A stretch of 64,000 nucleotides of DNA, from positions 160,001-224,000 of the forward strand of contig OZ240245.1 of assembly GCA_965198175.1 (NCBI GenBank), written 5' to 3'. Under the pieces are notes generated by a model that made no database searches, was not told where the DNA came from, and saw only the letters and a program-made list of their open reading frames with translations. Positions 1 through 18,779 of the stretch are shown here, in pieces. The translations under genes were made by a program, and so were the position numbers. The stretch is from Candidatus Poribacteria bacterium. Its GTDB lineage: Bacteria; Poribacteria; WGA-4E; PCPOR2b. The first letter of the stretch is position 1. Every line of letters begins with the position of its first letter.

Positions 1-500
1 ATATGGCGCGTTGCGCAGATTGCCCCTTCCTTCAAGAAAATTGAACCGTTGGGACCGATTAAGGTTATCGGTTCGGAACCTGCAATATCACCTGAATCGC
101 GAATCGGCGGGTCTAGCCCTAAACGAATTGCATCGGTGCGTGCGACCTCGACTTGTGTATAGCCCCTCACTGGGCCCAGGATGCGAATCCCTTCAATAGC
201 ACGGATACGCCGACCAACAATGGTCAGGGTTTCAGCTGCTGCAAAGGCGCCCGGCTGATATAAAGGGGCATGGACTACCAATTGGTGTCCCGCACCGTAA
301 AGGATTTCTAGGTGCTCCTGGGTAACATGTGCATGTCTTGCCGACACGCCAACAGGTATTTTGTTCTGTTGCAAGACAGCGTCGCAGGCACGATTCCCCA
401 CCGCACAAGTTCGCAAAGCACAGCCGCTACAAGGATGCTCTGTCTGAAGTTGTTCAAGCACCTTATGAGTAATCAACTCAATCAGCGCCTCGTCACGCAT
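1..500 (-). CDS. pduL: Phosphate propanoyltransferase PduL (BMC-associated phosphotransacylase), 3' end runs off the window
   Basis: Not in the ORF track; hand translation from ATG at 500 gives MRDEALIELITHKVLEQL...IPVGVSARHAHV...RILGPVRGYTQVEVARTDAIRLG...GPNGSIFLKEGAICATRH, typical PduL motifs; directly downstream of a BMC shell gene. Confidence 0.9.
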   Translation of the reverse strand, partial: MRDEALIELITHKVLEQLQTEHPCSGCALRTCAVGNRACDAVLQQNKIPVGVSARHAHVTQEHLEILYGAGHQLVVHAPLYQPGAFAAAETLTIVGRRIRAIEGIRILGPVRGYTQVEVARTDAIRLGLDPPIRDSGDIAGSEPITLIGPNGSIFLKEGAICATRH

Positions 501-512
501 CCGCCATCTTCC

Positions 513-842
513 TTAACTTGACGAATCCCCTTCAACCAAATCAATGGCCAGCGCATTGTCTGATTCTCTTTGAGTAGGTAAAATCAATTCGACTTCCGCA
601 TGTGGCCTCGGAATAACATGGACAGATACAACTTCACCTACCCTTGCTGCTGCCTCTGCTCCAACATCTGTCGCAGCTTTGACAGCGCCGACATCGCCGC
701 GAACCATAACTGTAACGTATCCCCCACCGATTGTTTCGCGCCCAATGAGCTTAACATTTGCGGCTTTGACCATCGCATCTGCGGCTTCAACACTTCCGAC
801 GAATCCTCTTGTTTCAACTAACCCCAAAGCGTCTCCTGCCAT
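513..842 (-). CDS. Bacterial microcompartment hexameric shell protein (BMC-H, EutM/PduA-like)
   Basis: ALGLVETRG...[12 protein letters not shown]...[19 protein letters not shown]...HVIPRPH. Confidence 0.97.
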
Positions 843-1231
843 CTAAAAAGTACCCTCCTGAATTTTTTTGTTAGAATACCAGCAGTATATCACAATGTTT
901 AGCCTGATTCAAGTCTTTCTAGCTTAAGCCCGTCACTGCATGTTATGAATTGTTGCTTAAAGTCCAGTCGCTTTTTGTGTCTCATCTAACAGTCATTTCT
1001 TCGACAACGTGCTAGAATTTCAAAGGCCCCACTGTCTGAAGAAGCGCACTCACGATGTTCAACCCCTTCGGTGCAATAAGATATTGCTTCAGATTATGCT
1101 AGCCTTCAAGAATTTGCCAATCGTCATTTTTGCAGCCCCAGTGTGGAAAGTTTACCATATTACGAGATAGGATTGCAAATACCGTCGGATATTTACAATC
1201 CAAGGAGCGAAAGAAAATCGGCGATCCTTAC

Positions 1232-2086
1232 TTAGTGGTATCTAATCGTAGCCCACGTTGTGGTGAGCTTACCCTTCGGTTCAACCGCTAGAGCGTCCGA
1301 ATCGAGCTTGGCGAGCTTTTCGATTTCCGGGGCGGAAAGCGCACGACCGAAGATTACGACATCATCAATGATACCGTCAATGTACTCCCAGTTGTTGACA
1401 TCATCACCACGCCCCCGCGACGCTCCGATAAGAATCGGGAAACCGGAAAAGGTCGCATACGGCGCCGTCAGCGCCATCGGGTCCCTACCGGCTGCGCCGT
1501 GAAATCCGTCAGTGACATGCGCGGGTTTGCCGTTGAGGAACCCCTGGATGGTTTGTCCGTTTCCAACTTGCGCCATGTGTATCCAAGTACCTAGCTTGTA
1601 GGCACCACGAACATTGAACCATCCCTCCGGATTTGCGGCGCCCCGTTCTGGCTTTTTATCCACGGCACCTTTCACATTATTCGAGCCGTACGTCAGGTCC
1701 GTGTCGTTGAGGGTTCCCAGCCGAATATGGAAGTTTGGACCCCAACCGATTTTCTCGCCCTTGAACATAACTGCGCCGTGATCGCTAGACCTTCGAATGA
1801 ACGCCCACACGGCGTGTGTGAATTCATCCGCCATCGCGTTCATTGAAGCATCATCGGGAATCTCGACGTAGGCATCCACCCCGTTGACATCAAGACCGAG
1901 TCCGTGCTTACCAGGAGCAAATCCTGCACCGCCTTTTACGATGCCGTCATTGCGGCCAGTTAGGTCGTTTGCGTTTTCATCGTTAAACGTCAAAACGGTA
2001 ATAACACCATCGCTCAACGCTGCCGATCCGACACTCGTCATGGCGCATAGAGCAACAACCACGAAGTAGTAATTATACCGTAGCAT
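1232..2086 (-). CDS. Secreted LamG/concanavalin-like jelly-roll protein
   Basis: Signal peptide; W.H.A and GIIDDVVIFGRALS motifs; C-terminal AVEPKGKLTTTWATIR tail. Confidence 0.85.
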   Translation of the reverse strand: MLRYNYYFVVVALCAMTSVGSAALSDGVITVLTFNDENANDLTGRNDGIVKGGAGFAPGKHGLGLDVNGVDAYVEIPDDASMNAMADEFTHAVWAFIRRSSDHGAVMFKGEKIGWGPNFHIRLGTLNDTDLTYGSNNVKGAVDKKPERGAANPEGWFNVRGAYKLGTWIHMAQVGNGQTIQGFLNGKPAHVTDGFHGAAGRDPMALTAPYATFSGFPILIGASRGRGDDVNNWEYIDGIIDDVVIFGRALSAPEIEKLAKLDSDALAVEPKGKLTTTWATIRYH

Positions 2087-2482
2087 GGTAAATCTCCTTC
2101 TTGAAATATGAATTTAGGATGATACCTTCACGAAAAACAGAAACTAAGGAGTTGGATTAACGGGGCGAATGTCCCAAAATTATACACACCAAATCCATAA
2201 CTTTAGGAAGGACAAATGCTCATGATTGAGATTATATCACTTCCCGCTTGTTTACATCCAGCATTATCTCGCCGAGCAATGCCCAATTTAGCCGAGTCGG
2301 ATTCGCAGTGCTTGCCGTGCCCGGCGCGCAATGATGACAGGTATCTCGTGTCGGGCGGGTCGTGGTGGACGTTATCTCACCGCCTAACGTATTTTCATCG
2401 CCGTTATCCTTTGGACGTTTAGTCTGTGATTTGATTCCAGTAACTCCGATGTCGAGAACAGATATCCCTGCCTTGTCAAAAC

Positions 2483-2511
2483 ATTATAGCCCGATGGATT
2501 GACTGAGGCAA
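2483..2511 (-). promoter_or_regulatory. Predicted sigma70 promoter (TTGCCT-N17-TATAAT)
   Basis: Reverse complement of 2483-2511; perfect -10 hexamer and 17-nt spacer. Confidence 0.55.
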
Positions 2512-2564
2512 GCTATATTTGCAAAATCATCGTTGTCAATGGAGACCAGTAGCAGACGCACCGA

Positions 2565-2593
2565 TTGACATCGGCGGTAGATTCAGGTAAAAT
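2565..2593 (+). promoter_or_regulatory. Predicted sigma70 promoter of hsdR (TTGACA-N17-TAAAAT)
   Basis: Consensus -35, 17-nt spacer, 50 nt upstream of ATG 2643. Confidence 0.65.
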
Positions 2594-2642
2594 AACGCCG
2601 ACGTACGCACCACAATATCATCTCACGACACATAATGAAGAC

Positions 2643-5390
2643 ATGACACCTGAGCAAAAAGCACGACAGAACATCGACCAACTACTCACAGCCGCGGGCT
2701 GGACGATTCAGGACCGCGAGCAGATGAATCTTGGTGAATCGCAAGGTGTAGCGGTACGCGAATTTCCTATGGCATCCGGGGCCACGGACTACCTGCTATT
2801 CATCGACAGTAAAGCAATCGGTGCAATCGAAGCCAAACCGGTAGGCACCACCCTCAGCGGTGTCTCTGAACAAACCGAGAAATACCTCACCGGGATTCCA
2901 GCACGGCTTCGATCCCATCAGAGACCATTGCCGTTCGGCTATGAGAGCACGGGAGTTGAAACCTTCTTCCGGGACCTACGCGATCCGGACTCCAGATCCC
3001 GCCGCGTTTTCGCCTTTCATAAACCGGAAACCTTGTCGCAGTGGATCGCCCAAGTGGATACACTGCGAAACCATCTCAAGGAACTGCCGTTGCTAGACGC
3101 GCATGGCTTGCGAGACTGCCAAATTGAAGCGATTCAGAATCTAGAGAAGTCGTTCGCGGAAAATCGCCCTCGCGCACTCATCCAGATGGCAACCGGCAGC
3201 GGGAAAACGTACACCGCCGTTAGTTTCGCTTATCGACTCATCAAATTCGCAGGTGCCAAGAGGATACTGTTTCTCGTTGATCGCAGCAATCTCGGAAGGC
3301 AGACGCTCAAAGAATTTCAGCAATATGCCACGCCGGAGGACGGGAGGAAATTAACCGAACTTTACAACGTGCAACATCTCACCACCAACCGGATTGACGG
3401 GGTAAGCAAGGTCTGCATTACCACGATTCAGCGGCTGTATTCGATGCTCAAAGGGGAATCGGATTTAGATGAGCAAATCGAAGGACGTTCGCTGTTCGAC
3501 CTTGGATTGGGGAATCAATCCGCTGCAGAGGTGGAATACCATCCCCATATTCCTATCTCGACCTTTGATTTCATCATCACCGACGAGTGCCCTCGCTCAA
3601 TCTACAACCGATGGAGGCCCGTGCTAGAATACTTCGACGCCTTTATCGTTGGTCTCACTGCGACCCCATCAAAGCAGACCCTTGGATTCTTCAATCAGAA
3701 TTTGGTCACGGAGTACAGCCACGAGCGGGCGGTCGCTGATGGTGTCAACGTTGGGTATGAGGTGTATCGTATCAAGACAGAGATTTCGGAGCAGGGTAGT
3801 AGCGTCGAAGCAGGTTTTTACGTTGACAAACGGGACCGGCTCACTCGCGAAACCCGATGGGAACAGCTTGATGAGGATATGGAATACAGCGCGACGCAGC
3901 TTGACCGTGCTGTGGTGGCTCCAGACCAGATTCGCACCGTAATTCAAACTTTTCGGGATAAACTGTTCACGGAGATTTTTCCCGGCAGAACGGAGGTACC
4001 CAAAACGCTTATCTTCGCCAAGGAGGACTCGCACGCTGAGGATATAGTGCGCACCGTTCGCGAAGAGTTCGGGCGGGGCAACGACTTCTGCAAAAAGATT
4101 ACGTACCAGACAACGGGCGAGAGACCGGAAGACCTACTCGCGAGCTTCCGAAACTCATTCAATCCGCGTATCGCGGTTACGGTGGACATGGTCGCCACAG
4201 GCACGGACATTAAGCCGCTAGAGTGTATTGTCTTCATGCGAAACATCAGATCGCCAGTCTATTTTGAGCAGATGAAGGGCAGAGGCACGCGCACGATTTC
4301 ATCGACAGACTTGCAGGCGGTCACGCCCGACACCAATCACAAAACCCATTTCGTGATTGTCGATGCAGTCGGCGTTTGCGAGAATGATAAAACCGAGTCC
4401 CGACCGCTTGAGCGCAAACACAGTGTGCCGTTTGATAAACTGCTTGAATCTGTGGCGCTCGGGTTCCGAGATTCAGATACCTTGACGACGTTGGCGGGTA
4501 GGCTCGCACGCCTTGACCGTCAAATCGGAGATGATGCGCAAAGACAGATCGTCGAAGCCTCTGGAGGCACCGCCTTGCGAGGTATGATTAACGGGTTGCT
4601 TAAGGCGGTTGACCCGGACCAACATGAACATCTTTTGATATCAACTGACTCATCTGGGGAAACCCCAACACCCGAGCTACTTAGGGAAAGCACGGATCAA
4701 CGCATCACTGAAGCGTGCAAACCTTTTGACAATCCTGAATTGCGCAACACGCTCATTGAAATTAAAAGGCGGCGGGAGCAGACAATCGACACCGTGAGCA
4801 TAGATAGCGTCATCGAATCAGGATTTGACCGCGAGGCGAAGGTGAATGCGGAGCGGATTGTGACGGACTTCAAACAGTTTATCGAAGACAACAGGGACGA
4901 ATTGACAGCGATTCAAATCTTTTACAGCAAACCTTACGGACAGCGCCATCTCACATTTCAACAGGTTAAGCAACTTGCCGATTCAATCGCAAGACCTCCA
5001 CATCACCTCACAACAGCACGGTTATGGCGGGCGTATGAGCAGTTGGAGCATTCGAAAGTCAAGGGGGCGGGACCGGACAAGTTGTTGACCGACATCATAT
5101 CCCTGGTGCGTTTTGCGATTGGGGAAACTGAAACGCTTGAACCTTACAAAGAGAGTGTCGATCGGCAGTTTCAGGGATGGCTTACCAAGCAGGAGAGACT
5201 GTTTTCAGAGGAGCAGATGGCGTGGTTGGAGATGATCAAAGACCATATTGTCACATCGCTGCACATTGAGATTGAAGATTTTGAATTTCCACCGTTTCAG
5301 GCAAAGGGCGGTGCGATTAAGGTTTATGAGCTGTTTGGCGATGCGTTGGGTACGATTCTTGAGGTGTTGAATGAGCAGTTGGCGGCGTAA
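2643..5390 (+). CDS. hsdR: Type I restriction enzyme R subunit (EcoEI/EcoAI-like)
   Basis: MTPEQKAR start; nuclease D...IEAK motif; Walker A MATGSGKT; GLTATP; EQMKGRGTR. Motif II reads DECP instead of DECH. Confidence 0.93.
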   Translation: MTPEQKARQNIDQLLTAAGWTIQDREQMNLGESQGVAVREFPMASGATDYLLFIDSKAIGAIEAKPVGTTLSGVSEQTEKYLTGIPARLRSHQRPLPFGYESTGVETFFRDLRDPDSRSRRVFAFHKPETLSQWIAQVDTLRNHLKELPLLDAHGLRDCQIEAIQNLEKSFAENRPRALIQMATGSGKTYTAVSFAYRLIKFAGAKRILFLVDRSNLGRQTLKEFQQYATPEDGRKLTELYNVQHLTTNRIDGVSKVCITTIQRLYSMLKGESDLDEQIEGRSLFDLGLGNQSAAEVEYHPHIPISTFDFIITDECPRSIYNRWRPVLEYFDAFIVGLTATPSKQTLGFFNQNLVTEYSHERAVADGVNVGYEVYRIKTEISEQGSSVEAGFYVDKRDRLTRETRWEQLDEDMEYSATQLDRAVVAPDQIRTVIQTFRDKLFTEIFPGRTEVPKTLIFAKEDSHAEDIVRTVREEFGRGNDFCKKITYQTTGERPEDLLASFRNSFNPRIAVTVDMVATGTDIKPLECIVFMRNIRSPVYFEQMKGRGTRTISSTDLQAVTPDTNHKTHFVIVDAVGVCENDKTESRPLERKHSVPFDKLLESVALGFRDSDTLTTLAGRLARLDRQIGDDAQRQIVEASGGTALRGMINGLLKAVDPDQHEHLLISTDSSGETPTPELLRESTDQRITEACKPFDNPELRNTLIEIKRRREQTIDTVSIDSVIESGFDREAKVNAERIVTDFKQFIEDNRDELTAIQIFYSKPYGQRHLTFQQVKQLADSIARPPHHLTTARLWRAYEQLEHSKVKGAGPDKLLTDIISLVRFAIGETETLEPYKESVDRQFQGWLTKQERLFSEEQMAWLEMIKDHIVTSLHIEIEDFEFPPFQAKGGAIKVYELFGDALGTILEVLNEQLAA

Positions 5391-5455
5391 GACAGATGCC
5401 TCAACTGGGTAACATCTTTGCGGCTATTAGAATTCTTTAACGCAAATTCTCAAAA

Positions 5456-5537
5456 ACGTTAATAAGACATTGCGTTATTAACGTAAAGTGAGAAAAACGT
5501 TAATAACGCAATGTCTTATTAACGTAAAGTGAGAAAA
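5456..5537. repeat. Two 41-bp tandem units containing a 29-bp site present once in each orientation
   Basis: ACGTTAATAA-GACATTGCG-TTATTAACGT (5456-5484) and ACGTTAATAA-CGCAATGTC-TTATTAACGT (5497-5525), each followed by AAAGTGAGAAAA. Confidence 0.95.
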
Positions 5538-5538
5538 G

Positions 5539-6729
5539 ATGAATCAGGAAGATTTCAAGAATTCAGCCGCCGGTAGATGTATTCGCACGATAACCCAGCC
5601 GTCAAATTGGGCTTATGTGCCGTACCCACTCCCAGCAAAAATCGAAATGGATTGGGAGTTGGCAAATCTTCTATCAAGAGCAGACATCAAACTAGGAGAG
5701 TTATCTGGTGCAGGACAACTGCTTCCGAATCCGCATCTGTTGATTAGACCGTTTATTCGGCGTGAAGCCGTAATGAGTTCAAGAATCGAAAATACCCAAT
5801 CCGGGTTGGACGACCTCTTTTTCTTTGAAGCAGATGAAACGGAATCGCCCCCTGTGTCCGATGTAACGGAAATAATCAACTATGTGAGAGCAATGGAACA
5901 TGGAATCAAACGATTGAAAGAGTTGCCGATTAGCTCCCGGCTAATCTGTGAAATACACGGAATTCTGATGGAGGGAGCACGGGGAGAACATGCCACACCG
6001 GGGGAGATGCGGACAAGCCAAAACTGGATTGGTAGCCCCGGATGTACGTTGATGGATGCCACCTATGTTCCTCCGCCGGTCCCAGAGATGAAAGCATGCT
6101 TTTCAGACTTAGAAAAATACGTCCATTCCGACGCAACGGAACCAGCATTGATTCAATGCGCTCTGGTTCACTATCAGTTTGAAGCGATTCATCCGTTTCT
6201 TGATGGCAACGGTAGGATTGGCAGGCTTCTGATCGCGTTTATGTTATTGGAGACGAGGTTGCTATCGCAGCCCCTGCTTTATCTTTCCGACTTTTTTGAG
6301 CAGCATAGAGATGAGTATTATAGATTATTGTTGACTGTAAGCCAAAAAGGAGACTGGAAAGCGTGGCTCGTGTTTTTCCTAAATGGGGTCCGTCAACAGT
6401 CAGAAGACTCCCTTGCAACGATTCGAAAACTGCTTGACTTACAGAAACAATATAGGGCAGTTGCAACCGGTCGAAGGGTGCCGATGGCTGTAAACCGCTT
6501 GATTGACCATCTGTTTGCGAATCCTATTATCTCAATTTCAGAACTATCCAAGGCTTGGAAGATACCCTTTCCCACCGTTCAACGGGGAGTGGATTACCTT
6601 ATCGAAAAAGGCATACTTGGGGAAATAACCGGAGGACGGCGAAACCGTCTGTTTGTTGCACATGAAATATTCAATACCATCATGACCGAGAGGACAAAAT
6701 CGCTGAATCCACGGAAACACCTAACATGA
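5539..6729 (+). CDS. Fic-domain protein with C-terminal HTH
   Basis: Canonical HPFLDGNGRIGR motif; EAVMSSRIEN N-terminal motif. Confidence 0.95.
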   Translation: MNQEDFKNSAAGRCIRTITQPSNWAYVPYPLPAKIEMDWELANLLSRADIKLGELSGAGQLLPNPHLLIRPFIRREAVMSSRIENTQSGLDDLFFFEADETESPPVSDVTEIINYVRAMEHGIKRLKELPISSRLICEIHGILMEGARGEHATPGEMRTSQNWIGSPGCTLMDATYVPPPVPEMKACFSDLEKYVHSDATEPALIQCALVHYQFEAIHPFLDGNGRIGRLLIAFMLLETRLLSQPLLYLSDFFEQHRDEYYRLLLTVSQKGDWKAWLVFFLNGVRQQSEDSLATIRKLLDLQKQYRAVATGRRVPMAVNRLIDHLFANPIISISELSKAWKIPFPTVQRGVDYLIEKGILGEITGGRRNRLFVAHEIFNTIMTERTKSLNPRKHLT

Positions 6730-6763
6730 ACGAAACAGATGCGGGTTTATGTACACTGCCCGA
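6655..6763 (+). repeat. fic 3' end / hsdS 5' end junction, copy 1 (hsdS part truncated)
   Basis: Ungapped hand alignment to 10806-10914, 81/109 identical; ATG 6726 reads MNETDAGLCTLP versus HsdS MNEADAGLSELP. Confidence 0.85.
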
Positions 6764-6872
6764 AACATTAGCAGAAAAAGCCCTGTTGGATAAATCCAAC
6801 AGGGCTTTTTCTGTTATGAGATTTCGGCATCTATCCGATAGCCTCGTTGTCGCCAACACCTCGGTAAATGCA

Positions 6873-7163
6873 TCAGATACGTGAACCATCAAGCAACAGA
6901 GACATGGTTGATTCGACCGGAGGTACCGGCGCTTCATAGTCTGGGAACAGCCAGAGTTGGTTTGACTCATCCGTGATGTCTTTAACGGATGGTTCGTCGA
7001 ACGGAATCGCCGGGTTCGCCCAGAGTTCCATCCCGTGTACGCTCGGATTAGCCGTGATTCGAGTGCGGATTCGGGCGCGACGCTCAAGTGCGAGTGTTTC
7101 TTCGGCGAAAACCTCTCGCATCAATCGTATGAGTGTGTCAGTAGAAAGGTCGGCTCGCATCAT
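6873..7163 (-). CDS. Small protein with QLWLF clamp-binding-like motif; candidate anti-sigma or clamp partner
   Basis: ATGA overlap with the clamp gene stop; helical N-terminus; acidic/Pro-rich tail containing NQLWLFP. Confidence 0.6.
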   Translation of the reverse strand: MMRADLSTDTLIRLMREVFAEETLALERRARIRTRITANPSVHGMELWANPAIPFDEPSVKDITDESNQLWLFPDYEAPVPPVESTMSLLLDGSRI

Positions 7164-8281
7164 CTCATGGGCATAACAACATATTGAAAGTTTGGCGCCA
7201 ATTCAAGGCGCATATGCGCAGTCGGTTCCGGGCGCATCCAGAGTGTAACCTCGGTCGCATCGGTCTGCAGAAGCGCTTCTTCAAAGAACCTGGCATCGAA
7301 TGCTGCTGCTGTATCTACACCCTCATACTGAATCGGTACACAGGCTTTCGAATTCCCCCAGCGGGTTATAATTTCAACAGTCAACTGTCCAGCACTGACG
7401 CGAAACTCTGTACGGTTGTGTGGGTGGTCGTCGCCTACACGGATGACTCTGAGTGCCCACAACAATTCTTCGCGGTTCACCTTCACGCGCAGATTGGCGC
7501 TGCTCGCTTGTTCAAGGACCCACTTATAATCTGGGAAATCCCCTTTCGGCAAGAGACACCTTAACGAAACTCCTTCAGCCTCAAAACCCATGGCGTTCTC
7601 AGTGAAGCGGAGAAGGCAGACGTGCGGATTTAAGGATTCTACCAAATCAATCATCTTCATGCACGCGGCATAAGGCATTGCCCGCATCGGAACAGAGGTT
7701 TCTGCTACAGCCGGTTTGTTCGTTAATGGTAAGGTAATCATTGCCATCCGTCTACCATCGGTTGCCACGACTCGCTCTTCACCTTCATGTTGATGAAAGA
7801 GTGCCCCTGTAATAAGGGGACGCCGGTTTGCCTCCTCTGAGTCTGATAGCTGTACCGAGGCAAACAGGACAGACTTCAGAGCCGCTCCGAACTGCGGCGC
7901 TTGAACTTCATATTCGGGCGCGTCTGCTAGCTCTGCAAGTGCGGGATTCTGCCATTTCTCCCCATGTGTGCGCACGGCATGTCGATGTTGATTGCCCTCA
8001 ATATCCAAACATCCATGCCATTCGTGGTGACTGAAACGCAGTGTTTCACCAACTGCGTAGTTACAAATACGCGACAGCGTGTCCGGGGGAACAGTTGCCT
8101 TGCCGGGGACTTCGACCTCGACTGGGATTGCATGATCTATACGGAAATTTCCGTCGTCGGTGTAGCATCTAAACTGTAACTGTGCAGCTTGCCCCGTCAT
8201 TGACAGGTGTGTGCCCGGTTCATCAAGTTTCAAAAGGGCTAAGGCACGCTTCAGCGTAGCCACATTACAAGTGAATCTCAT
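7160..8281 (-). CDS. dnaN: Divergent DNA polymerase III beta sliding-clamp paralog
   Basis: 373 aa from ATG 8281 (GGAGG SD); VATDGRRM, GDFPDY, AFDARFF and C-terminal YVVMPMR clamp motifs; not in a dnaA-recF context. Confidence 0.85.
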   Translation of the reverse strand: MRFTCNVATLKRALALLKLDEPGTHLSMTGQAAQLQFRCYTDDGNFRIDHAIPVEVEVPGKATVPPDTLSRICNYAVGETLRFSHHEWHGCLDIEGNQHRHAVRTHGEKWQNPALAELADAPEYEVQAPQFGAALKSVLFASVQLSDSEEANRRPLITGALFHQHEGEERVVATDGRRMAMITLPLTNKPAVAETSVPMRAMPYAACMKMIDLVESLNPHVCLLRFTENAMGFEAEGVSLRCLLPKGDFPDYKWVLEQASSANLRVKVNREELLWALRVIRVGDDHPHNRTEFRVSAGQLTVEIITRWGNSKACVPIQYEGVDTAAAFDARFFEEALLQTDATEVTLWMRPEPTAHMRLELAPNFQYVVMPMR

Positions 8282-8366
8282 CGGTTCCTCCCCACCCGCA
8301 AGGCAAGCATTGAGAAATGTCTTTCCCAATTGATGCCTCGTTGGGTGTTTTGCTTTCAGTCTGGAA

Positions 8367-8924
8367 TTAGAACAGGTCTTCGATTGATGTGTCTCTCTGT
8401 TTGAGTAACCGCAACACCTCATCGCGCAAGGCATTGCGTGCACGCTGCCGAAGCGATTTAACAGCGATTTCGCTTCGTTGGATAATCTTTGCGATTTCTC
8501 TGTTCGGCATATCTTCCAACTCGCCCAACACGAGCACCGTGCGGTCGATTGGTCGTAGTTGAAGTAGGGCAGCCTGCAAGAACTCCCTGCTTTCAGCGCG
8601 GATTAATCGCTTGAGCGGAGATTCTGTTGAAGCCAGTGGGATAACCAACATCTGCGCCATTTCTTCCGTAGTCGTCCTATCGAATGAAATCGCCGGGTGC
8701 TGTCGACGCTGACGCAAGAGGTCAATACACCCATTGTATGCGATGCGAAACAGCCACGAACGCACCGCTGCCGGGGCAAGTAACTCAGACCAGCCCTGAT
8801 ACGCCCGGAGAAACGTCTCAGCAGTCATGTCCTCGGCATCCGTCGGGTTTCCTAAAAACCGATGAATAAACCGATAGATACCGTCAACATACAACTCATA
8901 TACTTCGATGAAAGATCCATCCAC
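8367..8924 (-). CDS. ECF sigma-70 factor
   Basis: DAEDMTAETFLRAY and SWLFRIAYN (region 2); EIAKIIQRSEIAVKSLRQRAR (region 4). Confidence 0.92.
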   Translation of the reverse strand: MDGSFIEVYELYVDGIYRFIHRFLGNPTDAEDMTAETFLRAYQGWSELLAPAAVRSWLFRIAYNGCIDLLRQRRQHPAISFDRTTTEEMAQMLVIPLASTESPLKRLIRAESREFLQAALLQLRPIDRTVLVLGELEDMPNREIAKIIQRSEIAVKSLRQRARNALRDEVLRLLKQRDTSIEDLF

Positions 8925-9100
8925 AAATGAAGCACCTCGTTAGCTTCGCGTTTTCAAGCCTATAAGACGAAATAATTGGGGCAAGGCATCGAAAAAACCG
9001 CACCGCCCAAATCCTCGGAAAATCGGTTGATTGGCTGATATAGATGCGATATACTGTTTGAACGCGGTTTCTGATGAAGATTTGGGGGAGATTTGTTATT

Positions 9101-9907
9101 ATGATAAAATTAGGTACGATGTCTTTGAATCTCAGGGATACAAACGCTACTGAATTTGCACGAATAGTTTACGAACTCGGTTTCGATGTCATTGAACTGC
9201 ACTCAAGCGCTTTTGAATCGACAGATCTCGAGTATCTTCGTGAACTTAAAATGACGTTGATGAAGCAAGGGCTACCGCTCGGCTATATCGGGATTAGCAA
9301 CGATTTCGGGCGTCGCGTAGATGAACATCCAGAGCAGATTGCGTTAATCAAAAAGTGGATTGATGTCGCGGATTTCATGAGTTGCCCACTCGTGCGTGTC
9401 TTCGGTGCGTATGTCCCTGATGAGTGTGAAGATGAAGAAGCGATCTGGGCGCCGATGATTGCTGGATTCCAAGAAGTCGCCGAATACGGATGTGAAAATG
9501 GCATCCTAGTCGGGTTACAGAACCACAATCACAACAATGTCACCCGTACCGGTGACGATGTGCTCCGTGCCCTTCGGGAAACAGATCGCCCCTATTTTAC
9601 ACACATTCTAGATACTGGACAATATGCTGGGTCGCCCGGTGCCAGCGGTCATGGAGGTTCGTCTCATCCCGACTACGATTGCTACGACAGCATTGCGAAA
9701 ACGGCGCCTCACGCTGTATATGTCCGTGCGAAGTTTTATCACATTGACAGCGGTGTTGAGGAGTGGCTCGATTATCCGCGAATTCTTGACATTCTGCGCG
9801 AAGTGGGCTACAATGGTCCCCTCTCCGTAGTATACGAAGGGGAGTCCAATCCGATTGAATCTATGGAAAAAGCGGTCGCTTATTTGCGGTCGCTTATCAA
9901 TGCTTGA
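9101..9907 (+). CDS. Sugar phosphate isomerase/epimerase (xylose isomerase-like TIM barrel)
   Basis: GFDVIEL, LQNHNH, ILDTGQ, GYNGPLSVVYEG. Confidence 0.85.
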   Translation: MIKLGTMSLNLRDTNATEFARIVYELGFDVIELHSSAFESTDLEYLRELKMTLMKQGLPLGYIGISNDFGRRVDEHPEQIALIKKWIDVADFMSCPLVRVFGAYVPDECEDEEAIWAPMIAGFQEVAEYGCENGILVGLQNHNHNNVTRTGDDVLRALRETDRPYFTHILDTGQYAGSPGASGHGGSSHPDYDCYDSIAKTAPHAVYVRAKFYHIDSGVEEWLDYPRILDILREVGYNGPLSVVYEGESNPIESMEKAVAYLRSLINA

Positions 9908-10000
9908 CAACCGGCACATGACTAGATTTACGTAAGAAGATAAAACGTTGTAGGGGGCGGGAAAAACAGAAAAGCTCAGTTAGATAAAGGCGCTCGCATC

Positions 10001-10630
10001 GTGGAACATAAAACGTGGTTTACTATTGACGGAACATTAGATCCGATCGACTTCCCTGAGCCCAGTTTCTTCCGCTTTCCACTAGAACTGGCAGAGTTTG
10101 TCGTGACTCGATTCTCCAATCCCGGTGACTGGGTTCTTGACCCATTCTGCGGATTTGGGACTACGTTGGTGGCTGCTCAGAACCTTGGACGTCAAGCGAT
10201 TGGATTCGAGAAAGACTCGCAACGGAGCGCTTTTGCTGCCAAGCGGTCGTGCCCTCCAAGTCGTGTTATTACTGAAGACAGTCGGCGTATCCTAGCGCAT
10301 GAATTACCGCATTTTGATTTATTGTTCACAAGCCCACCCTATTCGAGTCTTCGCGATGGGAAAACCGAACAACCTGTGCAGGAGTACGCGGTTGATCTTG
10401 TTAAGATCTTTGAACCAATCCACGGTTGCATGAAACCCGAGAGCAAGGTTGTCATTGAATTATCCAATGTTCGTCAGGCGGACGGTATTCGACCGACGTT
10501 GTGGGAAGCGGGGCGGGCACTCGCTGAACTCTTCTGCCTCGAAGACGAGTTAGTACGGTGCAACACAGGGGCAGAGTTGGCTGGGCCCGGCTACAATCAT
10601 TCAACATTGCTCATCTATCGGGTTGCATGA
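10001..10630 (+). CDS. Small DNA amino-methyltransferase (SPPY, N4C-like)
   Basis: VLDPFCGFGTT SAM-binding motif followed by TSPPY. Confidence 0.8.
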   Translation: MEHKTWFTIDGTLDPIDFPEPSFFRFPLELAEFVVTRFSNPGDWVLDPFCGFGTTLVAAQNLGRQAIGFEKDSQRSAFAAKRSCPPSRVITEDSRRILAHELPHFDLLFTSPPYSSLRDGKTEQPVQEYAVDLVKIFEPIHGCMKPESKVVIELSNVRQADGIRPTLWEAGRALAELFCLEDELVRCNTGAELAGPGYNHSTLLIYRVA

Positions 10631-10805
10631 TTGTAACTTAACCCGTCGTTACGCATCACGTCGCACGGTTTATGTCGCCAATCGATCCAACGCTAATCCC
10701 GGCTTTGAAAAAGTGGGACAGAGCTTCAAAACTTACCTATTCATGAAGTCGCTTGATACACTGATACAGCCTATTTCGTAATCTTCTCTACCCCTCTATT
10801 CCTCC

Positions 10806-10914
10806 GTTGCAGATGCGATACTCAATACAATCACAACAGAGAGTACAAAATCAATGAACTCAAGGAAGCATGTGATATGAATGAAGCGGATGCAGGTTTG
10901 TCGGAACTGCCCGA
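10806..10914 (+). repeat. fic 3' end / hsdS 5' end junction, copy 2 (fic part is a remnant)
   Basis: Translates VADAILNTITTESTKSMNSRKHVI* versus Fic C-terminus VAHEIFNTIMTERTKSLNPRKHLT*. Confidence 0.85.
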
Positions 10915-12244
10915 TGGGTGGGTGTGGACGACGTTGGAAGAGGTAAGCAAACTCAATCCGAGAATTGATAGACAAGGCATTGATGATGATTTAGAAGTCA
11001 CGTTTCTGCCAATGAAAAGCGTCGAAGAACTCAGCGGAAAGACAGACTTATCTGAAACAAAACGGTTTTCAGAACTTAAAAGGAAAAGCTACACACCATT
11101 TCGAGACGGGGATATTCTCTTTGCGAAAGTAACCCCGTGTATGGAGAATGGCAAAATCGCCATTGCCCGTGATTTGAAAAATGGAATTGGTTTCGGATCG
11201 ACAGAATTTCACGTGATTCGGTTGTCAGAAGCACAGTCAAGGCAATTCTTTTGCTTCTATTTTTTACAACAGAAATTTAGACAAGAAGCAAAAAGGGCAA
11301 TGACCAGTGCAGTCGGTCTATTGAGAGTGCCAACTGATTACATGAGAAGGGTTCTGCTTCCCCTTCCCTCACTCCCCGAACAACACCGCATCGTCGCCAA
11401 GATCGAAGAACTCTTCACGAAACTTGATGCAGGCATTAACGCACTCCACAAGGTACAAGCCCAACTCAAGCGGTATCGCCAATCAGTCCTGAAAGCCGCC
11501 TTTGAAGGAAAGCTGACAGGAGTGTGGCGGGGGGAGCATCAGGACGAGATTGAGCCTGTCTCACCAATTGCGAGCGATTTGCCTGATGGATGGGTGTGGA
11601 CAACAGTCGGTAGTATCGGGACAATTGCAAGTGGTCAAACACCAAAAGGAATCAATGAATCGAATTCGGAAGGTGACATTCCGTTTTACAAGATTAGCGA
11701 CATGAATAAACTCGGAAATGAGAAATTCATGCGAAACTCAGAAATCGCGCTTCACGATGGCGAAGTCGAGAGATTGAGAATCCATGTTAGGGCACAAGGA
11801 ACAGTGATTTTTCCTAAGAGAGGCGGCGCAATTGCCACAAACAAAAAGCGGATCCTAACCTGTCAATCGGCTTACGACCTAAATATCATGGGGGTATTGC
11901 CTCATATTGTGTCAACAGATTTTTTCTACCAATGGTTGTTATCAATCGATCTTGCTCGATTATCCGATGGCTCGAATGTTCCACAACTTAATCATAAGGA
12001 TATACATCCGTTGCCTTTCCCTCTTCCTCCACTTGGAGAACAACAAGCGATTGTCTCTGAAGTCGAACACCGCCTCTCCGTTGCCGACGAAGTGGAGAAA
12101 ATCATTACGGTAGAGCTGAAACGCGTTGAGCAGTTACGTCAATCGATTCTCAAGAAAGCTTTCTCGGGGAAATTGGTGCCGCAAGACCCGCGCGATCAGC
12201 CTGCCAGCGTCCTGCTTGAACGCATTAAGGCGGAGAAATCATAG
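10877..12244 (+). CDS. hsdS: Type I R-M specificity subunit
   Basis: Two TRDs each starting LPDGWVWTT; PLPSLPEQHRIV and PLPPLGEQQAIV; RQSILKKAFSGKLVPQDP. Confidence 0.95.
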   Translation: MNEADAGLSELPDGWVWTTLEEVSKLNPRIDRQGIDDDLEVTFLPMKSVEELSGKTDLSETKRFSELKRKSYTPFRDGDILFAKVTPCMENGKIAIARDLKNGIGFGSTEFHVIRLSEAQSRQFFCFYFLQQKFRQEAKRAMTSAVGLLRVPTDYMRRVLLPLPSLPEQHRIVAKIEELFTKLDAGINALHKVQAQLKRYRQSVLKAAFEGKLTGVWRGEHQDEIEPVSPIASDLPDGWVWTTVGSIGTIASGQTPKGINESNSEGDIPFYKISDMNKLGNEKFMRNSEIALHDGEVERLRIHVRAQGTVIFPKRGGAIATNKKRILTCQSAYDLNIMGVLPHIVSTDFFYQWLLSIDLARLSDGSNVPQLNHKDIHPLPFPLPPLGEQQAIVSEVEHRLSVADEVEKIITVELKRVEQLRQSILKKAFSGKLVPQDPRDQPASVLLERIKAEKS

Positions 12245-12401
12245 TGCATTCAGAAGAAGATTCGGTTAAAATTATGTTACGCAATTAAACACCCAAAGTT
12301 GATAGTCGGGCAGTTAATTGCTCGTTTATCGCGAATCTTTTCTTTAGACCATTTGTTCTGATTGACTGACAAACCCCATCTTAGATAAGAGGCAAGAAAA
12401 T

Positions 12402-12668
12402 ATGAAGCAATACCAAGAAGCGCAAGTTATCGATCCTCTCCTCGCGTTAGCTGGTACGCTTGAATGTGAAGTGACGGACATAGAAGACCCAATGTCGGCG
12501 ATGATACGGGAGACTAGCACCAATCAATCGCAGGAAACGCAGGGGGCCGATCTACTCCTAGCATTGGCAGGAACACTTGAATGTGAGGTGACAGATATAG
12601 GCGAACGTCACGACGATTATATCGGGGACGCACTGTTAGCAGAGTTACGAGGCGACAACCATCAATGA
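12402..12668 (+). CDS. Small antitoxin-like protein with internal duplication
   Basis: D[PL]LLALAGTLECEVTDI occurs twice; C-terminal DIGERHDDYI resembles partners of PIN toxins. Confidence 0.6.
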   Translation: MKQYQEAQVIDPLLALAGTLECEVTDIEDPMSAMIRETSTNQSQETQGADLLLALAGTLECEVTDIGERHDDYIGDALLAELRGDNHQ

Positions 12669-12740
12669 AGTTTTCTGAGAAACGCACGAATGGACGAGTT
12701 TAATGTAATCATTTCTCAATCCCAGAATAGGTGACGCGAT

Positions 12741-13214
12741 ATGCAAACACAGCAAAAGAACCTCAATTTCAATCCAACACTCGTAAAAGACTCAGCGGTT
12801 GAGAAACAAATGCTTGATCCTTCTTCGGTCGTCGCGCCAGATGTCTTCTCGCTAGAACATGTCCAGCGAGAAATCGCGAATATCCGAGAGGAAGTAGAGG
12901 AAACCTGCGTGGTGGCTGACGATGTGAAAGCTGTCCCGGAATCGACGTACGAAGAAACACTGTCTTTATTGAAGCAGTTGCCGCACGATATCCCGATGCC
13001 CGTCATGATGTGGTTGGAAGACGGAGGCATTGGGTTGGAGTGGCGTCCGGGGGACGGCATCGCGACGATGAGTATTTACGGCGACAATCTTGTCATTTAT
13101 GGCGCCTTTTTTAACCAAAAGCGTGAATTCGATGGAATTTGCTCGCTGTCAGACAGTGTCTTTTTGAAGGGGTTTGTTATAATATTGAGAAACCCCCCTC
13201 AGAAGAACGCTTGA
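12741..13214 (+). CDS. Hypothetical protein
   Basis: 157-aa ORF with SD-like AGGTG; DGGIGLEW motif. Confidence 0.6.
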   Translation: MQTQQKNLNFNPTLVKDSAVEKQMLDPSSVVAPDVFSLEHVQREIANIREEVEETCVVADDVKAVPESTYEETLSLLKQLPHDIPMPVMMWLEDGGIGLEWRPGDGIATMSIYGDNLVIYGAFFNQKREFDGICSLSDSVFLKGFVIILRNPPQKNA

Positions 13215-13252
13215 TATGTATGATTTAGACTGTTAGAACTTGCGCAGCAACG

Positions 13253-13281
13253 GTAGGTCGCGATTCGGAGATCGCTCCTAC
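13253..13281. repeat. REP-like palindrome GTAGG...CCTAC
   Basis: GTAGGTCGCGATTCGGAGATCGCTCCTAC; related sequence at 26922-26941. Confidence 0.65.
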
Positions 13282-13302
13282 AAAACTAGAGTCATTCCGA
13301 AC

Positions 13303-14751
13303 ATGCCAAATGATTCATCAGCCATTGTACAGAAGTTGTGGAATTATTGTAACGTCCTGCGCGACGATGGGGTCAGCTACGGCGACTATGTGGAACAGTT
13401 GACCTATCTTCTGTTTCTGAAAATGGCGGATGAGCAGACAAAACCGCCGTTCAGGAAGGAGTCCGTTGTCCCAGCGGGGCTAGGCTGGGGAAGCCTCGTT
13501 GACGTGGACGGTGATGCACTCGAAATACATTATCGTCATATCCTGAACGAATTGGGCAAGCAGAGCGGCACGCTGGGGGTAATCTTCAGAAAATCCCAAA
13601 ACAAGATTCAAGACCCCGCCAAACTCAAGCGAATCATTCAACTTATCAACGATGAGACGTGGAGCGGTCTGGATACTGATGTTAAAGGGGACATCTACGA
13701 AGGGTTGCTGCAGAAAAACGCTGAAGATACCAAAAGCGGTGCGGGCCAATACTTCACGCCCCGTTCCTTGATTCAGGCAATCGTGGAGGTGATGAGACCG
13801 GAACCAATGCAAACCATCTGCGATCCCGCGTGTGGCACCGGCGGATTTTTTCTGGCTTCCTATGATTACCTTTCCAAGAAAAGCGATCGGCTTGACAGAG
13901 CACAGAAGCGGTTCCTGAGATACGAGACCTTTCACGGCACTGACATCGTGGACAACGTAGTGCGGTTATGTGTGATGAACCTGCACCTTCACGGTATCGG
14001 CGGAAATGAGAGTCCCGTCGAAACCGGGGATAGCCTTATCTCGGATACGGGTGAGCGTTTTGACATGGTGTTGACCAATCCACCCTTTGGCAAGAAAAGC
14101 AGCATCACAATTGTGGATGAAAAAGGCGGAGCGGGTAAAAACTCGCTCATCTACGAGCGGGAGGATTTCTGGGCGACCACCTCTAACAAGCAGCTTAACT
14201 TCCTTCAGCACGTCAAAACGATTCTGAAAATCAACGGCAGGGCGGCGATTGTCGTGCCGGATAACGTCCTGTTTGAAGGCGGCGCGGGTGAGACCATCCG
14301 CAAGAAACTGCTGCACGAATGCGATGTGCATACGCTGCTTCGACTCCCGACGGGCATCTTTTACGCTCAGGGCGTCAAGGCAAACGTACTGTTCTTTGAT
14401 CGCAGACCCGCCAGCGAAACCCCGTGGACAGAAAAGCTGTGGATTTACGACCTCCGAACCAACCGGCGATTCACGCTGAAAACGAAGCCGATGCGCTACA
14501 GCGACCTCCACGATTTCATCGCCTGCTACAACTCCGACAATCGCCATATTCGGAAAGAGACCGAGCGGTTTAAATCTTTCTCCTACGATGAACTGATGCA
14601 GCGGGACAAGGTTAGCCTTGACATCTTCTGGCTGCGAGACGAAAGTCTTGAGGACACGGAGAATCTGCCGGAACCTGATGAATTGGCGGGCGAAATTGTT
14701 GCAAATCTAGCAGCGGCGTTGGAACAGTTTCAGGACATTTATGAGGCGTGA
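13303..14751 (+). CDS. hsdM: Type I R-M N6-adenine methyltransferase subunit
   Basis: GAGQYFTPR, DPACGTGGF, LTNPPF, RLPTGIFY. Confidence 0.96.
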   Translation: MPNDSSAIVQKLWNYCNVLRDDGVSYGDYVEQLTYLLFLKMADEQTKPPFRKESVVPAGLGWGSLVDVDGDALEIHYRHILNELGKQSGTLGVIFRKSQNKIQDPAKLKRIIQLINDETWSGLDTDVKGDIYEGLLQKNAEDTKSGAGQYFTPRSLIQAIVEVMRPEPMQTICDPACGTGGFFLASYDYLSKKSDRLDRAQKRFLRYETFHGTDIVDNVVRLCVMNLHLHGIGGNESPVETGDSLISDTGERFDMVLTNPPFGKKSSITIVDEKGGAGKNSLIYEREDFWATTSNKQLNFLQHVKTILKINGRAAIVVPDNVLFEGGAGETIRKKLLHECDVHTLLRLPTGIFYAQGVKANVLFFDRRPASETPWTEKLWIYDLRTNRRFTLKTKPMRYSDLHDFIACYNSDNRHIRKETERFKSFSYDELMQRDKVSLDIFWLRDESLEDTENLPEPDELAGEIVANLAAALEQFQDIYEA

Positions 14752-15044
14752 ACGGGTGTTCACCTATGTCTAGCAGAGAGATCCCGTCGCCTTAAACAGT
14801 GCTGTCCTCCTTAGAATATTCCCTCGCAGCTTTTTCCCTTCGCGTTCTTCAAATTCGGCGATGAACCGCTAGCCGCCCCATCTGTTTCAATCCCACCCAT
14901 CAGCATCATACGCTCAACGATTAGACTGAACTCGCTTATCGGCGAAAGCTGAGATTCAACAGATGTTAGCATTTCAACCCTCATCTGGTCATTTGATACA
15001 ATTGCGCAGGAACAACTTTTTCAGCGCTCCAGATGGAAAATATA

Positions 15045-15073
15045 TTGACATAGGCGAGAAATGCGGGTAAATT
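15045..15073 (+). promoter_or_regulatory. Predicted sigma70 promoter (TTGACA-N17-TAAATT)
   Basis: Upstream of the rhodanese-pterin operon. Confidence 0.55.
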
Positions 15074-15260
15074 ATAGAATAACAATGGGGTTCAGTTTTC
15101 CTCGGAAGCGTGCGTAAAAGACGTTACTCCGTATCATCTAGGTTCACATCTCAGAGAATTGGCAGAAGGGTGTTTTTGGTTCAAGAGATGTGGACGAAGG
15201 ACCAATCTATCGTCTTGAACAGAAAACCTAAATTAAAATCTGAAATGGGAGGGTTTTATC

Positions 15261-16109
15261 ATGGCAGATTACGCTCAACCTGAAGTCTTGGTCAGCACCG
15301 ATTGGGTGGCACAACACCATAACGATCCAGGCATCCGGCTGCTCGAAGTCGATGTTGATACCGCCGCCTATGACGAAGGACACATCAAAGGCGCAGTAGG
15401 ACTCAACTGGCAGACCCAACTGTGCGATCAAGTGCGGCGGGATATCTTAACCAAAGAGCAATTTGAACAACTGTGCAGCGATTGCGGAATCCGCAACGGC
15501 ACCACCATTATCTTTTATGGTGACAATAACAATTGGTTCGCCACCTACGCGCTCTGGCAGTTCCGATACTATGGTCATGATGAGAGCAAGCTAAAGGTGA
15601 TGAACGGTGGGCGCACAAAATGGATTGATGAAGGACGGGACTTGGTGACGGACCCATCTACGCCCGCTGCCACAGTCTACAAGGCTAAGTTCCCGGACGA
15701 CAACGTGCGGGCAACAAAGGACAACATCCTTCCAACGCTCAATCAGGGGATTATCAATCTCGTTGACGTCCGCTCTCCAGCGGAATTCACCGGCGAGATT
15801 CTCGCACCGCCTGGTTTGTCTGAAACCGCCCAGCGCGGTGGACATATCCCCGGCGCAGCCAATATCCCTTGGGCGACTGCAGTTGCTGAAGATGGGACCT
15901 TTAAGTCCTATGATGAACTTATGGCAATTTACGGAGGTGAGGGGGTTGACCCGAGCAAGGAAACGATAGCCTACTGCCGAATCGGAGAACGCTCCTCGCA
16001 CACCTGGTTCGCACTGAAGTATCTGTTAGGCTACGAGAAAGTGCGCAACTACGATGGCAGTTGGACCGAATGGGGCAACCTAATTGGCGCGCCTATCGCC
16101 AAATCGTAA
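15261..16109 (+). CDS. Two-domain rhodanese / thiosulfate sulfurtransferase
   Basis: LVSTDW, GHIPGA, YCRIGERS, YDGSWTEW. Confidence 0.95.
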   Translation: MADYAQPEVLVSTDWVAQHHNDPGIRLLEVDVDTAAYDEGHIKGAVGLNWQTQLCDQVRRDILTKEQFEQLCSDCGIRNGTTIIFYGDNNNWFATYALWQFRYYGHDESKLKVMNGGRTKWIDEGRDLVTDPSTPAATVYKAKFPDDNVRATKDNILPTLNQGIINLVDVRSPAEFTGEILAPPGLSETAQRGGHIPGAANIPWATAVAEDGTFKSYDELMAIYGGEGVDPSKETIAYCRIGERSSHTWFALKYLLGYEKVRNYDGSWTEWGNLIGAPIAKS

Positions 16110-16181
16110 CTGATGCACGACGCCCTAATGGTTGATTGGGGCGTCGTCAAACCTTTCGAAGGTTTGATGCGGGAGTTTTAC

Positions 16182-16469: not shown

Positions 16470-16498
16470 AGGTCTGTATCTTAAGCATAATTCCTATC

Positions 16499-17939: not shown

Positions 17940-17987
17940 TGTCTGATCCTTAACAGTTCAGATTAAGAACGGAACGAAGAAAATGCA

Positions 17988-18701: not shown

Positions 18702-18779
18702 GGAGATAAAATCAGGAAATACGAATAGAAAATGGGTATGATGTGGAGAATGCGTATGCGTTCACTCACTTTCCACGTT

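Follow-up and report, generated by a model that had tools for sequence, protein, structure and literature searches.

A 64,000-nt stretch of contig OZ240245.1 from Candidatus Poribacteria bacterium (hereafter the window, in whose numbering all coordinates are given unless stated otherwise) carries a minus-strand cassette of three closely packed genes, which encode, in order, a sigma factor of the extracytoplasmic function (ECF) type, a divergent paralog of the beta sliding clamp DnaN, and a small protein of 96 aa. We propose that the cassette may encode an autoregulated pair, resembling a sigma factor and its anti-sigma factor, that is docked on a dedicated clamp, with the state of the clamp's peptide pocket controlling the sigma factor; this is a tentative reading to which we give considerable, but less than even, weight. 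A first-pass annotation made from the sequence alone had described three co-oriented open reading frames (ORFs) at this position, and all three are present there, on the minus strand. We set the clamp start at MRFTC (8278) on the basis of an alignment of 23 family members, by which the mechanical ORF (7160-8443) is over-extended.

Our comparison covers 22 loci, namely the window and 21 full-length loci from genome contigs. Of the 22 loci that were retrieved, 20 are titled Candidatus Poribacteria, a group in which certain sponge-dwelling members bear the cassette. A neighborhood search for triads of ECF sigma, dnaN, and small ORF finds the trio together and in the same order at every one of these loci (22/22), the next commonest neighbor being present at 12/22; a 1.9-kb contig (L019) additionally carries the promoter, the sigma gene, and the start of the clamp gene. 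In the window, the ATG of the small ORF overlaps the TGA of the clamp gene as ATGA, in agreement with the translational coupling that had been read from the sequence, and in 21/22 loci the small ORF starts within the clamp stop, sharing 4 nt or 1 nt with it. The spacer between the sigma and clamp genes is partly conserved, with insertions tolerated in L005 and L006 and deletions in L021 and L022. The insertions in L005 (5760-5950) and L006 (5800-5950) measure 120-170 nt, lie between the inverted repeats TAGGACTTACGCAA and TTGCGTAAGTCCTA, and look like miniature inverted-repeat elements; in L025, a perfect hairpin stands in place of an insertion.

Among the alternative sigma factors of bacteria, those of the ECF type make up the largest family, and their known modes of control are anti-sigma factors, C-terminal extensions, kinases, and two-component systems, a sliding clamp not being one of them. 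The cassette sigma factor is of the ECF type (group 4) in that it consists of regions 2 and 4 only, within 185 aa (expected about 180-200). Sigma70_r2 (PF04542, residues 9-74) is matched at 1.8e-15 and r4_2 (PF08281, residues 116-166) at 1.2e-12, and the score against TIGR02937 (sigma70-ECF) is 81.9 bits for a cut-off of 42.9, while none of the specific NCBIfam equivalogs attains its own cut-off. The sigma factor is the best conserved member of the trio, with a mean column identity of 85% across 22 orthologs, whereas the clamp has 66% and the small protein 38%. Its C-terminal SIEDLF, to which the first-pass annotation had drawn attention, sits directly behind region 4 and is conserved across the orthologs: [IL]-x-D-L-[FL] fits 22/22, D183 and L184 are invariant, and residue 185 is F in 20/22 and L in the remaining two. 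In relatives of the sigma factor with 41-60% identity, [IL]-x-[DES]-[LF]-[FLI] is still found close to the C-terminus, although the flanking residues differ (..TIDDLF, ..TIEEFFFDV, ..TIESLFQD, ..DIQDLIET, and ..NLDDLLK), whereas the next-nearest ECFs, six unrelated proteins at 33-39% identity, have no comparable tail motif. The motif is therefore specific to this sigma family.

The product of the middle gene is, judged by its predicted fold, a three-domain beta clamp of the DnaN type. Its AF2 model, at a mean pLDDT of 80.1, consists of three repeated domains, a Foldseek search with it against the PDB returns DnaN clamps throughout the best 50 ranks (E about 1e-23, TM 0.55-0.63), and a profile of the paralog family gives 52 matches among PDB sequences, which are clamps without exception. 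In Pfam, the central domain PF02767 alone passes (30.7 bits), and the paralog fails the replicative-DnaN equivalog TIGR00663, with 82 bits for a cut-off of 137.65. It is 25% identical to the genome's own DnaN over 251 residues. That housekeeping gene lies about 205 kb from the cassette (G000:C1, about 372.8-373.9 kb), scores 93-119 bits on each of the three Pfam domains, and is adjoined by a RecF/SMC_N gene; the cassette clamp is thus an extra one, as had been supposed, and not the sole dnaN. The paralog family is closed. In a search of 5.8 billion proteins it comprises 57 clusters at 44-100% identity, beyond which the matches drop to ordinary DnaNs at 26% identity (E 4e-15).

The peptide-pocket motifs that had been recognized in the paralog (ATDGRR, FPDY, and YVVMPMR) are present, and ATDGRR, FPDY, and VVMPM align with ATDGRR, YPKY, and IMPM of the host DnaN. 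Across the 23 members of the family, T174, G176, R178, V369, and M370 are invariant, and P250, Y252, and P371 are conserved in at least 90%. Going by the E. coli structures, we take T174/G176/R178, P250/Y252, and V369/M370/P371 to line the peptide pocket between domains II and III. A further feature of the paralog, one not shared by ordinary clamps, is its content of 14 His and 8 Cys residues, compared with 3 and 3 in the host DnaN; H86, H89, H99, H101, H163, C207, C222, and C242 are conserved in 21-23 of the 23 members, and a metal or redox site at this cluster is a guess on our part.

Over the N-terminal 40 codons of the small ORF, third-position differences exceed those at the first and second positions both in group A (781 vs 440 and 390) and in group B (261 vs 86 and 67), and relatives of the protein form 130 protein clusters, none of which has a name. 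From the third-position excess and the relatives together, we conclude that the small ORF is a real gene that is coding in this frame. An exhaustive hidden Markov model search of 1.84 billion representatives gave just 12 small-protein clusters. In a low-confidence model (pLDDT 62), helices at residues 8-19 and 26-37 are followed by disorder, with pLDDT values of at most 56 in the tail. The head (residues 1-40) is basic, with a pI of 11.2, and the tail is acidic, with a pI of 4.05, so that the description of NQLWLF as lying in an acidic, flexible tail was apt.

The invariant positions of the small protein are T8, I12, R16, R29, R35, W48, W71, L72, F73, and L90. The segment W71-L72-F73 occurs in 22/22 orthologs and the complete QLWLF in 18/22, the others having QPWLF, PLWLF (twice), and QGWLF; WLF also recurs in relatives at 35% identity or less, and the conservation of the ORF and of its motif, on which the first-pass proposal had depended, is in this way borne out. 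Distant full-length members (P0322, P0323, P0325, and P0326) retain the head, an LxLWP motif, and xWLFP. L015 (7134-7484) encodes an ortholog in which the motif region is duplicated in tandem, as DQLWLFPDFEAQ and then DRLALFLDFEAQ. The ESM Atlas holds no usable match to the small protein, its profile has 0 matches among PDB sequences at E up to 10, and VIA-align against 48,161 chains reaches a best Z of 4.7, to generic helical hairpins.

Upstream of the sigma gene stands a two-block element, TTTTCGATGCC (8985-8995) and, after a 13-nt spacer, TTCGTCTTA (8963-8971), which we infer to be the sigma factor's own promoter. It begins 68-70 nt upstream of the sigma GTG in 21/22 loci and 89 nt upstream in L025. 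The block spacing is constant at 24 nt in all 22 aligned upstream regions, including that of L025, the most distant locus, and the downstream block holds CGTC in 22/22. When both strands of the 4.92-Mb genome were scanned with a 42-nt position weight matrix, one site exceeded 18 bits; it is that of the operon itself and scores 52.7 bits, whereas the 99.9999th percentile over all genome positions stands at 6.0 bits. A two-block scan scored the operon's site at 36.0 and two others at 25.1 and 21.6, with no gene downstream of either. Three relaxed regular expressions gave near control counts and no convincing promoter beyond the operon's own (pattern A had 26 matches vs 9 in reversed-sequence controls, none of them promoter-like before a gene), and no retrieved locus contains a second promoter site. 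Because the genome has no second convincing site, the cassette is the sole recognizable target, and the operon looks like its own main target. The earlier suggestion that the sigma factor induces the extra clamp fits with the sole strong genomic match to the promoter being that of this operon; recognition of the element by this sigma factor is presumed.

Signs of expression come from Logan contigs of four sponge metatranscriptome libraries (2 studies), which cover parts of the clamp gene in 4/4 libraries. One RNA contig overlies a portion of the sigma gene (8554-8775), one spans the junction of clamp and small ORF (6993-7189), two extend over the clamp start into the spacer, and four are identical to the window. 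In the four libraries, no contig covers the promoter region, the sigma gene's 5' part (about 8776-9228), or several other bins, and this is uninformative on transcription. Since the contigs neither show strand nor exclude DNA carry-over, they give only a hint that the cassette is expressed. A search of the segment 6000-10000 with Rfam yielded sub-threshold matches alone, on the terminator hairpin. The coordinates of the cassette and its parts are collected in Table 1.

Table 1. Positions of the cassette and its parts in the 64,000-nt window.
Feature	Position	Strand	Basis or remark
Whole cassette as insertion/deletion unit	6745..9087	-	Gap in the alignment to G034
Promoter-like element	8960..8995	-	Conserved in 22/22 upstream regions
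ECF sigma factor, 185 aa, GTG start	8367..8924	-	Pfam r2 and r4_2, TIGR02937
Sigma C-terminal tail SIEDLF, residues 180-185, resembling the clamp-binding motif	8370..8387	-	Ortholog alignment
Sigma-clamp spacer, 88 nt, with clamp ribosome-binding site GGGAGGAA	8279..8366	-	
Divergent beta sliding clamp paralog, 372-373 aa	7160..8278	-	Family alignment, profiles, fold
Small protein, 96 aa	6873..7163	-	Reading-frame conservation, relatives
QLWLF motif in small protein, residues 69-73	6945..6959	-	Acidic tail
Terminator-like hairpin, 19-bp stem	6772..6813	-	About 60 nt past the small ORF stop

Carriage of the cassette is patchy across the phylum. The clamp is found in 22/176 genomes, which fall in two families (12/28 in one and 8/11 in the other) plus one further genome; within one genus, 8/20 genomes carry it, and several complete single-contig genomes are without it. 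The genome G034, of the same genus and with flanks 91% identical, aligns to window positions 3-6744 and then from 9088, with about 6 bp between, so that it lacks exactly the 2.3-kb block from promoter to terminator. At this junction no target-site duplication is evident, and positions 1-20000 of the window contain no tRNA. Searches with tblastn of the clamp against phages (5 records, at most 26% identity) and plasmids (3 records, at most 31% identity) gave generic dnaN only, and a scan of viral contigs for relatives of the cassette clamp gave 0. A mobile-element origin was considered and set aside on these grounds. The PHROG matches are to a generic family of sigma factors and to a family of DnaN-type processivity factors; the score of 104 bits to the latter (phrog_947) raised the question of a phage affinity of the paralog, which was rejected since the host DnaN scores 265 bits against that very model.

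The mechanism that we propose would run as follows. The ECF sigma factor would transcribe its own operon from the conserved upstream promoter, which amounts to positive autoregulation, and the small protein would be its partner and negative regulator, the basic two-helix head holding the sigma factor in the manner of a minimal anti-sigma factor. The ..DLF end of the sigma factor and the ..QLWLFPD.. of the small protein would dock into the peptide pockets of the co-encoded paralog; as a clamp dimer would offer two pockets, the sigma/partner pair could be held on the clamp. Whether pockets are free, or what state the clamp is in, would then decide the release of the sigma factor and hence, through positive feedback, the level of the paralog. 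As inputs, three candidates suggest themselves: other ligands that occupy the pockets (antibiotics, toxins, phage or replisome proteins), the loading of the clamp on DNA, and the His/Cys cluster specific to the family. In this scheme, we infer all of the protein-protein contacts, the sign of the regulation, and the signal.

The consensus of the clamp-binding motif is QL[SD]LF or QLxLx[LF]. Both tails appear to match it at the level of sequence, that of the small protein within a region predicted to be disordered and that of the sigma factor at the terminus, and peptides named in the titles of E. coli clamp structures, AcQADLF (4k3o) and AcQLALF (4k3p), resemble ..EDLF and QLWLF. Complex prediction of the clamp and sigma factor with the small protein as partner scored 0.61, 0.58, and 0.60; controls with the partner replaced scored 0.00 and 0.00, and with the clamp replaced 0.57, so the required mark was not attained, and the outcome counts neither for nor against any binding.

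Several considerations weigh against the proposed mechanism. The small protein has 0 matches in Pfam, NCBIfam, PADLOC, and PHROGs, and therefore none to an anti-sigma family, and its gene is at +2 from the sigma gene instead of the +1 position customary for an anti-sigma factor. The Q of the canonical clamp motif is lost in its distant members. Translational coupling suggests one small protein per clamp protomer, which would leave no pocket for the sigma tail. An operon that regulates itself alone needs some output, and since the promoter model was built from sites of orthologs, diverged regulon members may escape it. The paralog, at 25% identity to the host clamp, may be neither loaded on DNA nor a replacement for that clamp.

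The same three proteins can be read in other ways. The strongest rival, although we place it on the unlikely side, is that they might serve clamp-activated transcription, as a cellular analog of what is seen in T4 late transcription (gp55/gp33/gp45) and in Mu (MuC/beta clamp): the paralog would be loaded at nicks or primer ends, slide to the promoter, and recruit or stabilize RNA polymerase through the DLF tail, with the small protein as a co-activator or a pocket competitor, and sigma output would be coupled to replication, damage, or foreign DNA ends. In T4, according to the available text of PMC7892883, two proteins, one of the sigma family and the other a small helical co-activator, have linkers that each bear a clamp-binding motif, and MuC has clamp-binding motifs and requires the clamp for transcription (available text of PMC12867686). 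A T4-like geometry fits because the DLF tail lies directly behind region 4; the predicted inner helices of the paralog keep basic residues, with K209 and R270 invariant, and many small-protein orthologs also start M(M)QTDLF. This N-terminal DLF, however, reads DLS in 8/22 orthologs, and the sigma factor has a full region 4 and a two-part promoter, unlike the -10-like-only T4 late promoters (PMC7892883, same text). No target beyond the cassette's own operon was found in the genome, no clamp loader gene is present in the cassette or its neighborhoods, and there is no homology to gp55, gp33, or gp45, which leaves an analogy only. A counterpart of the T4 'mobile enhancer', in which a DNA-tracking paralog couples the sigma factor to the state of the DNA and the His/Cys residues serve as an extra metal or redox input, we hold to be unlikely; the states that it would convey through the tails of the sigma factor and the small co-factor are nicks, replication forks, and incoming foreign DNA ends.

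That the motifs are not clamp ligands strikes us as quite improbable. The ECF operon would then co-express an accessory replication or repair clamp as cargo, the small protein would be an ordinary novel anti-sigma factor or an unrelated partner whose WLF and LW motifs touch the sigma factor or RNA polymerase, and the DLF end of the sigma factor would be structural or a degradation tag. Disordered tails often hold short hydrophobic motifs, a conserved end is partly expected in a sigma factor that is 85% conserved overall, and the missing Q in distant small-protein members points the same way. Set against this, the sigma tail motif persists at 41-60% identity despite differing flanks and is absent from the next-nearest ECFs, two clamp-type motifs are strictly co-inherited with a pocket-conserving clamp in 22/22 loci, and the small ORF is translationally coupled to the clamp and not to the sigma gene. 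We give least credence to a toxin-antitoxin-like or abortive module, which seems to us very improbable. Here, the paralog would act as a poison or decoy clamp, its pocket drawing off replisome proteins, and a labile small protein would plug the pocket and restrain the sigma factor; loss of the small protein, for example upon infection or stress, would free both, and positive feedback would give a burst of clamp that arrests or protects replication. Such a module would suit the accessory, patchy carriage, the clean indel in a congener, the location in variable regions, in this genus with a type I restriction system and SoFic alongside, the disordered, fast-evolving, and translationally coupled small ORF, and a self-activating operon. 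None of the three proteins matches PADLOC, however, the phage, plasmid, and viral-contig collections hold no relatives beyond generic DnaN (at most 31% identity), and the group-A loci lie in a syntenic metabolic neighborhood.

The docked sigma/partner pair that we propose, and the alternatives to it, can be set beside several known systems. The closest analog, absent from the first-pass annotation, is the T4 trio gp55/gp33/gp45, and by analogy it would predict activation rather than sequestration. In the available text of PMC7892883, the motifs of gp55 and gp33 attach to hydrophobic patches, each on a different clamp protomer, upstream of the polymerase; the clamp, once loaded on DNA, activates transcription from an upstream position, and gp33 occupies the beta flap where sigma region 4 would sit. 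As far as that text and the available text of PMC2988020 go, T4 and the cassette have in common a sliding clamp and two proteins, one of the sigma family and one small, helical, and about 100 aa long, whose flexible tails each bear a clamp-binding peptide (putative in the cassette); this tail is at, or just behind, the site of region 4 and the beta flap. The T4 clamp is replicative and of the trimeric PCNA type, whereas the cassette has a dedicated DnaN paralog of the dimeric type beside the housekeeping DnaN; gp55 is without region 4 and uses -10-like promoters only, whereas the cassette has a full ECF sigma factor and a two-block promoter; and the T4 system is phage-borne, whereas the cassette is cellular and chromosomal, with no sequence homology between them. 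In phage Mu, the available text of PMC12867686 describes clamp-binding motifs near both ends of MuC and transcription that needs the clamp, so that here too a clamp of the DnaN type is used by a small factor whose clamp-binding motifs are near the consensus. The partners of MuC are sigma70 and the host replicative clamp, whereas the small protein of the cassette comes with its own sigma factor and clamp and has no match to any Pfam family, and so none to the Mor family.

According to the available text of PMC7826278, ECFs are usually co-encoded with a regulator, and short C-terminal extensions have been proposed as modulators. The cassette resembles such ECF/anti-sigma pairs in its presumably autoregulated operon, a small candidate regulator, and a short conserved C-terminal extension of the sigma factor, and it differs from them in that the +1 position, where the anti-sigma gene would stand, is taken by the clamp, and that the candidate regulator has no known anti-sigma domain. 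The available main text of this ECF re-classification has 0 mentions of clamp, DnaN, polymerase III, or Poribacteria; the available part of one of its supplementary files has no clamp, DnaN, or Poribacteria and a single 'polymerase III', which refers to a delta subunit beside ECF30. A full-text search of the literature found no description of a sigma-clamp operon or of a clamp-controlled cellular sigma factor, which accords with the first-pass remark that no described system with this arrangement of sigma, clamp, and small ORF was known.

The clamp pocket is also a target in other settings. In Caulobacter, the toxin of SocAB binds the pocket of the replicative clamp, with no sigma factor involved; the likeness is that of a small protein proposed to sit in the peptide pocket of a clamp. 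The extra dnaN griR confers self-resistance to griselimycin. Like griR, the cassette clamp is a second clamp gene beside a housekeeping dnaN and retains the pocket; unlike griR, the cassette is not in or beside such a biosynthetic cluster, has a clamp at 25% identity to that of the host, and brings a dedicated sigma factor and a motif-bearing small protein. DnaN is the target of griselimycin and mycoplanecin (available text of PMC10817943). For the cassette itself, the suggestion of a griR-like resistant replicative clamp is doubtful because of this low identity to the host DnaN. The sensing of clamp-targeting antibiotics had been raised as well; the enzymes of antibiotic-modifying type and the MacB permease near group-B loci fit loosely with a xenobiotic theme. 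There is no adjacent biosynthetic cluster for a clamp-targeting compound.

The neighborhoods of the cassette differ between lineages. Group-A loci share a syntenic metabolic neighborhood, and group-B loci have antibiotic-modifying-type enzymes and a MacB permease nearby. In one clade, the neighbors are a TIM-barrel gene, a DNA methyltransferase, a 2-hydroxyacid dehydrogenase, a STAS protein, and a VIT-VWA protein. The flanks in a second clade (L015-L024) form a co-oriented island with DUF4037 (up to 3 copies), an APH/choline-kinase-like protein, a transglutaminase-NUDIX fusion, a chloramphenicol-phosphotransferase-like kinase, SAM methyltransferases, a PhyH dioxygenase, and a MacB-type permease. 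The appearance is that of an island for the modification of small molecules or for resistance, and the cassette promoter motif does not occur before its other genes. One genome (G023) has two cassette copies (L008 and L012) on different contigs with the same upstream neighbors, which reflect a segmental duplication or else the presence of two strains in the assembly.

In the window, the cassette is surrounded by a type I restriction-modification system (hsdR-like, 2565-5390; hsdS, 10877-12244; hsdM, 13240-14751), with SoFic at 5539-6729. PADLOC 2.0 assigns 0 families to each of the cassette proteins and does match the neighboring SoFic and methyltransferase. A 109-nt direct repeat (6655-6763 and 10806-10914, 74% identical) copies the end of the Fic gene and the start of hsdS, and has left a 5' fragment of hsdS (ORF 6726-6884) right behind the cassette terminator; from this duplication of hsdS, the block from the cassette to the methyltransferase appears to have recombined into the restriction operon. 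Where the hsdM ORF begins, a segment of about 28 nt (13256-13283) has dozens of 97-100% identical copies scattered over the chromosomes of congeners, some of them in series about 490 bp apart in G033, and may be a dispersed repeat or miniature element. An 88-aa ORF (12402-12668) contains an internal duplication, with LLALAGTLECEVTDI present twice, and an ordinary pterin-synthesis run at 16499-18701 encodes a 6-pyruvoyl-tetrahydropterin synthase (two domains), GTP cyclohydrolase I, and a short-chain dehydrogenase.

Clamp-dependent transcription was long regarded as a peculiarity of T4. A 2026 paper on Mu argues, in its available text, that it is more widespread (PMC12867686). If the proposed sensing of pocket occupancy is true, the cassette would be a natural biosensor for clamp-targeting compounds in the natural-product-rich sponge microbiome, and as a compact three-protein system it can be rebuilt in E. 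coli. If instead the paralog tracks DNA as a mobile enhancer, this would be the first bacterial, non-phage sigma factor shown to be under sliding-clamp control and the first sliding clamp to have evolved for signaling and not for replication. A conserved chromosomal operon with a sigma factor, a private clamp, and two docking-type peptides would extend clamp-coupled transcription to cells.

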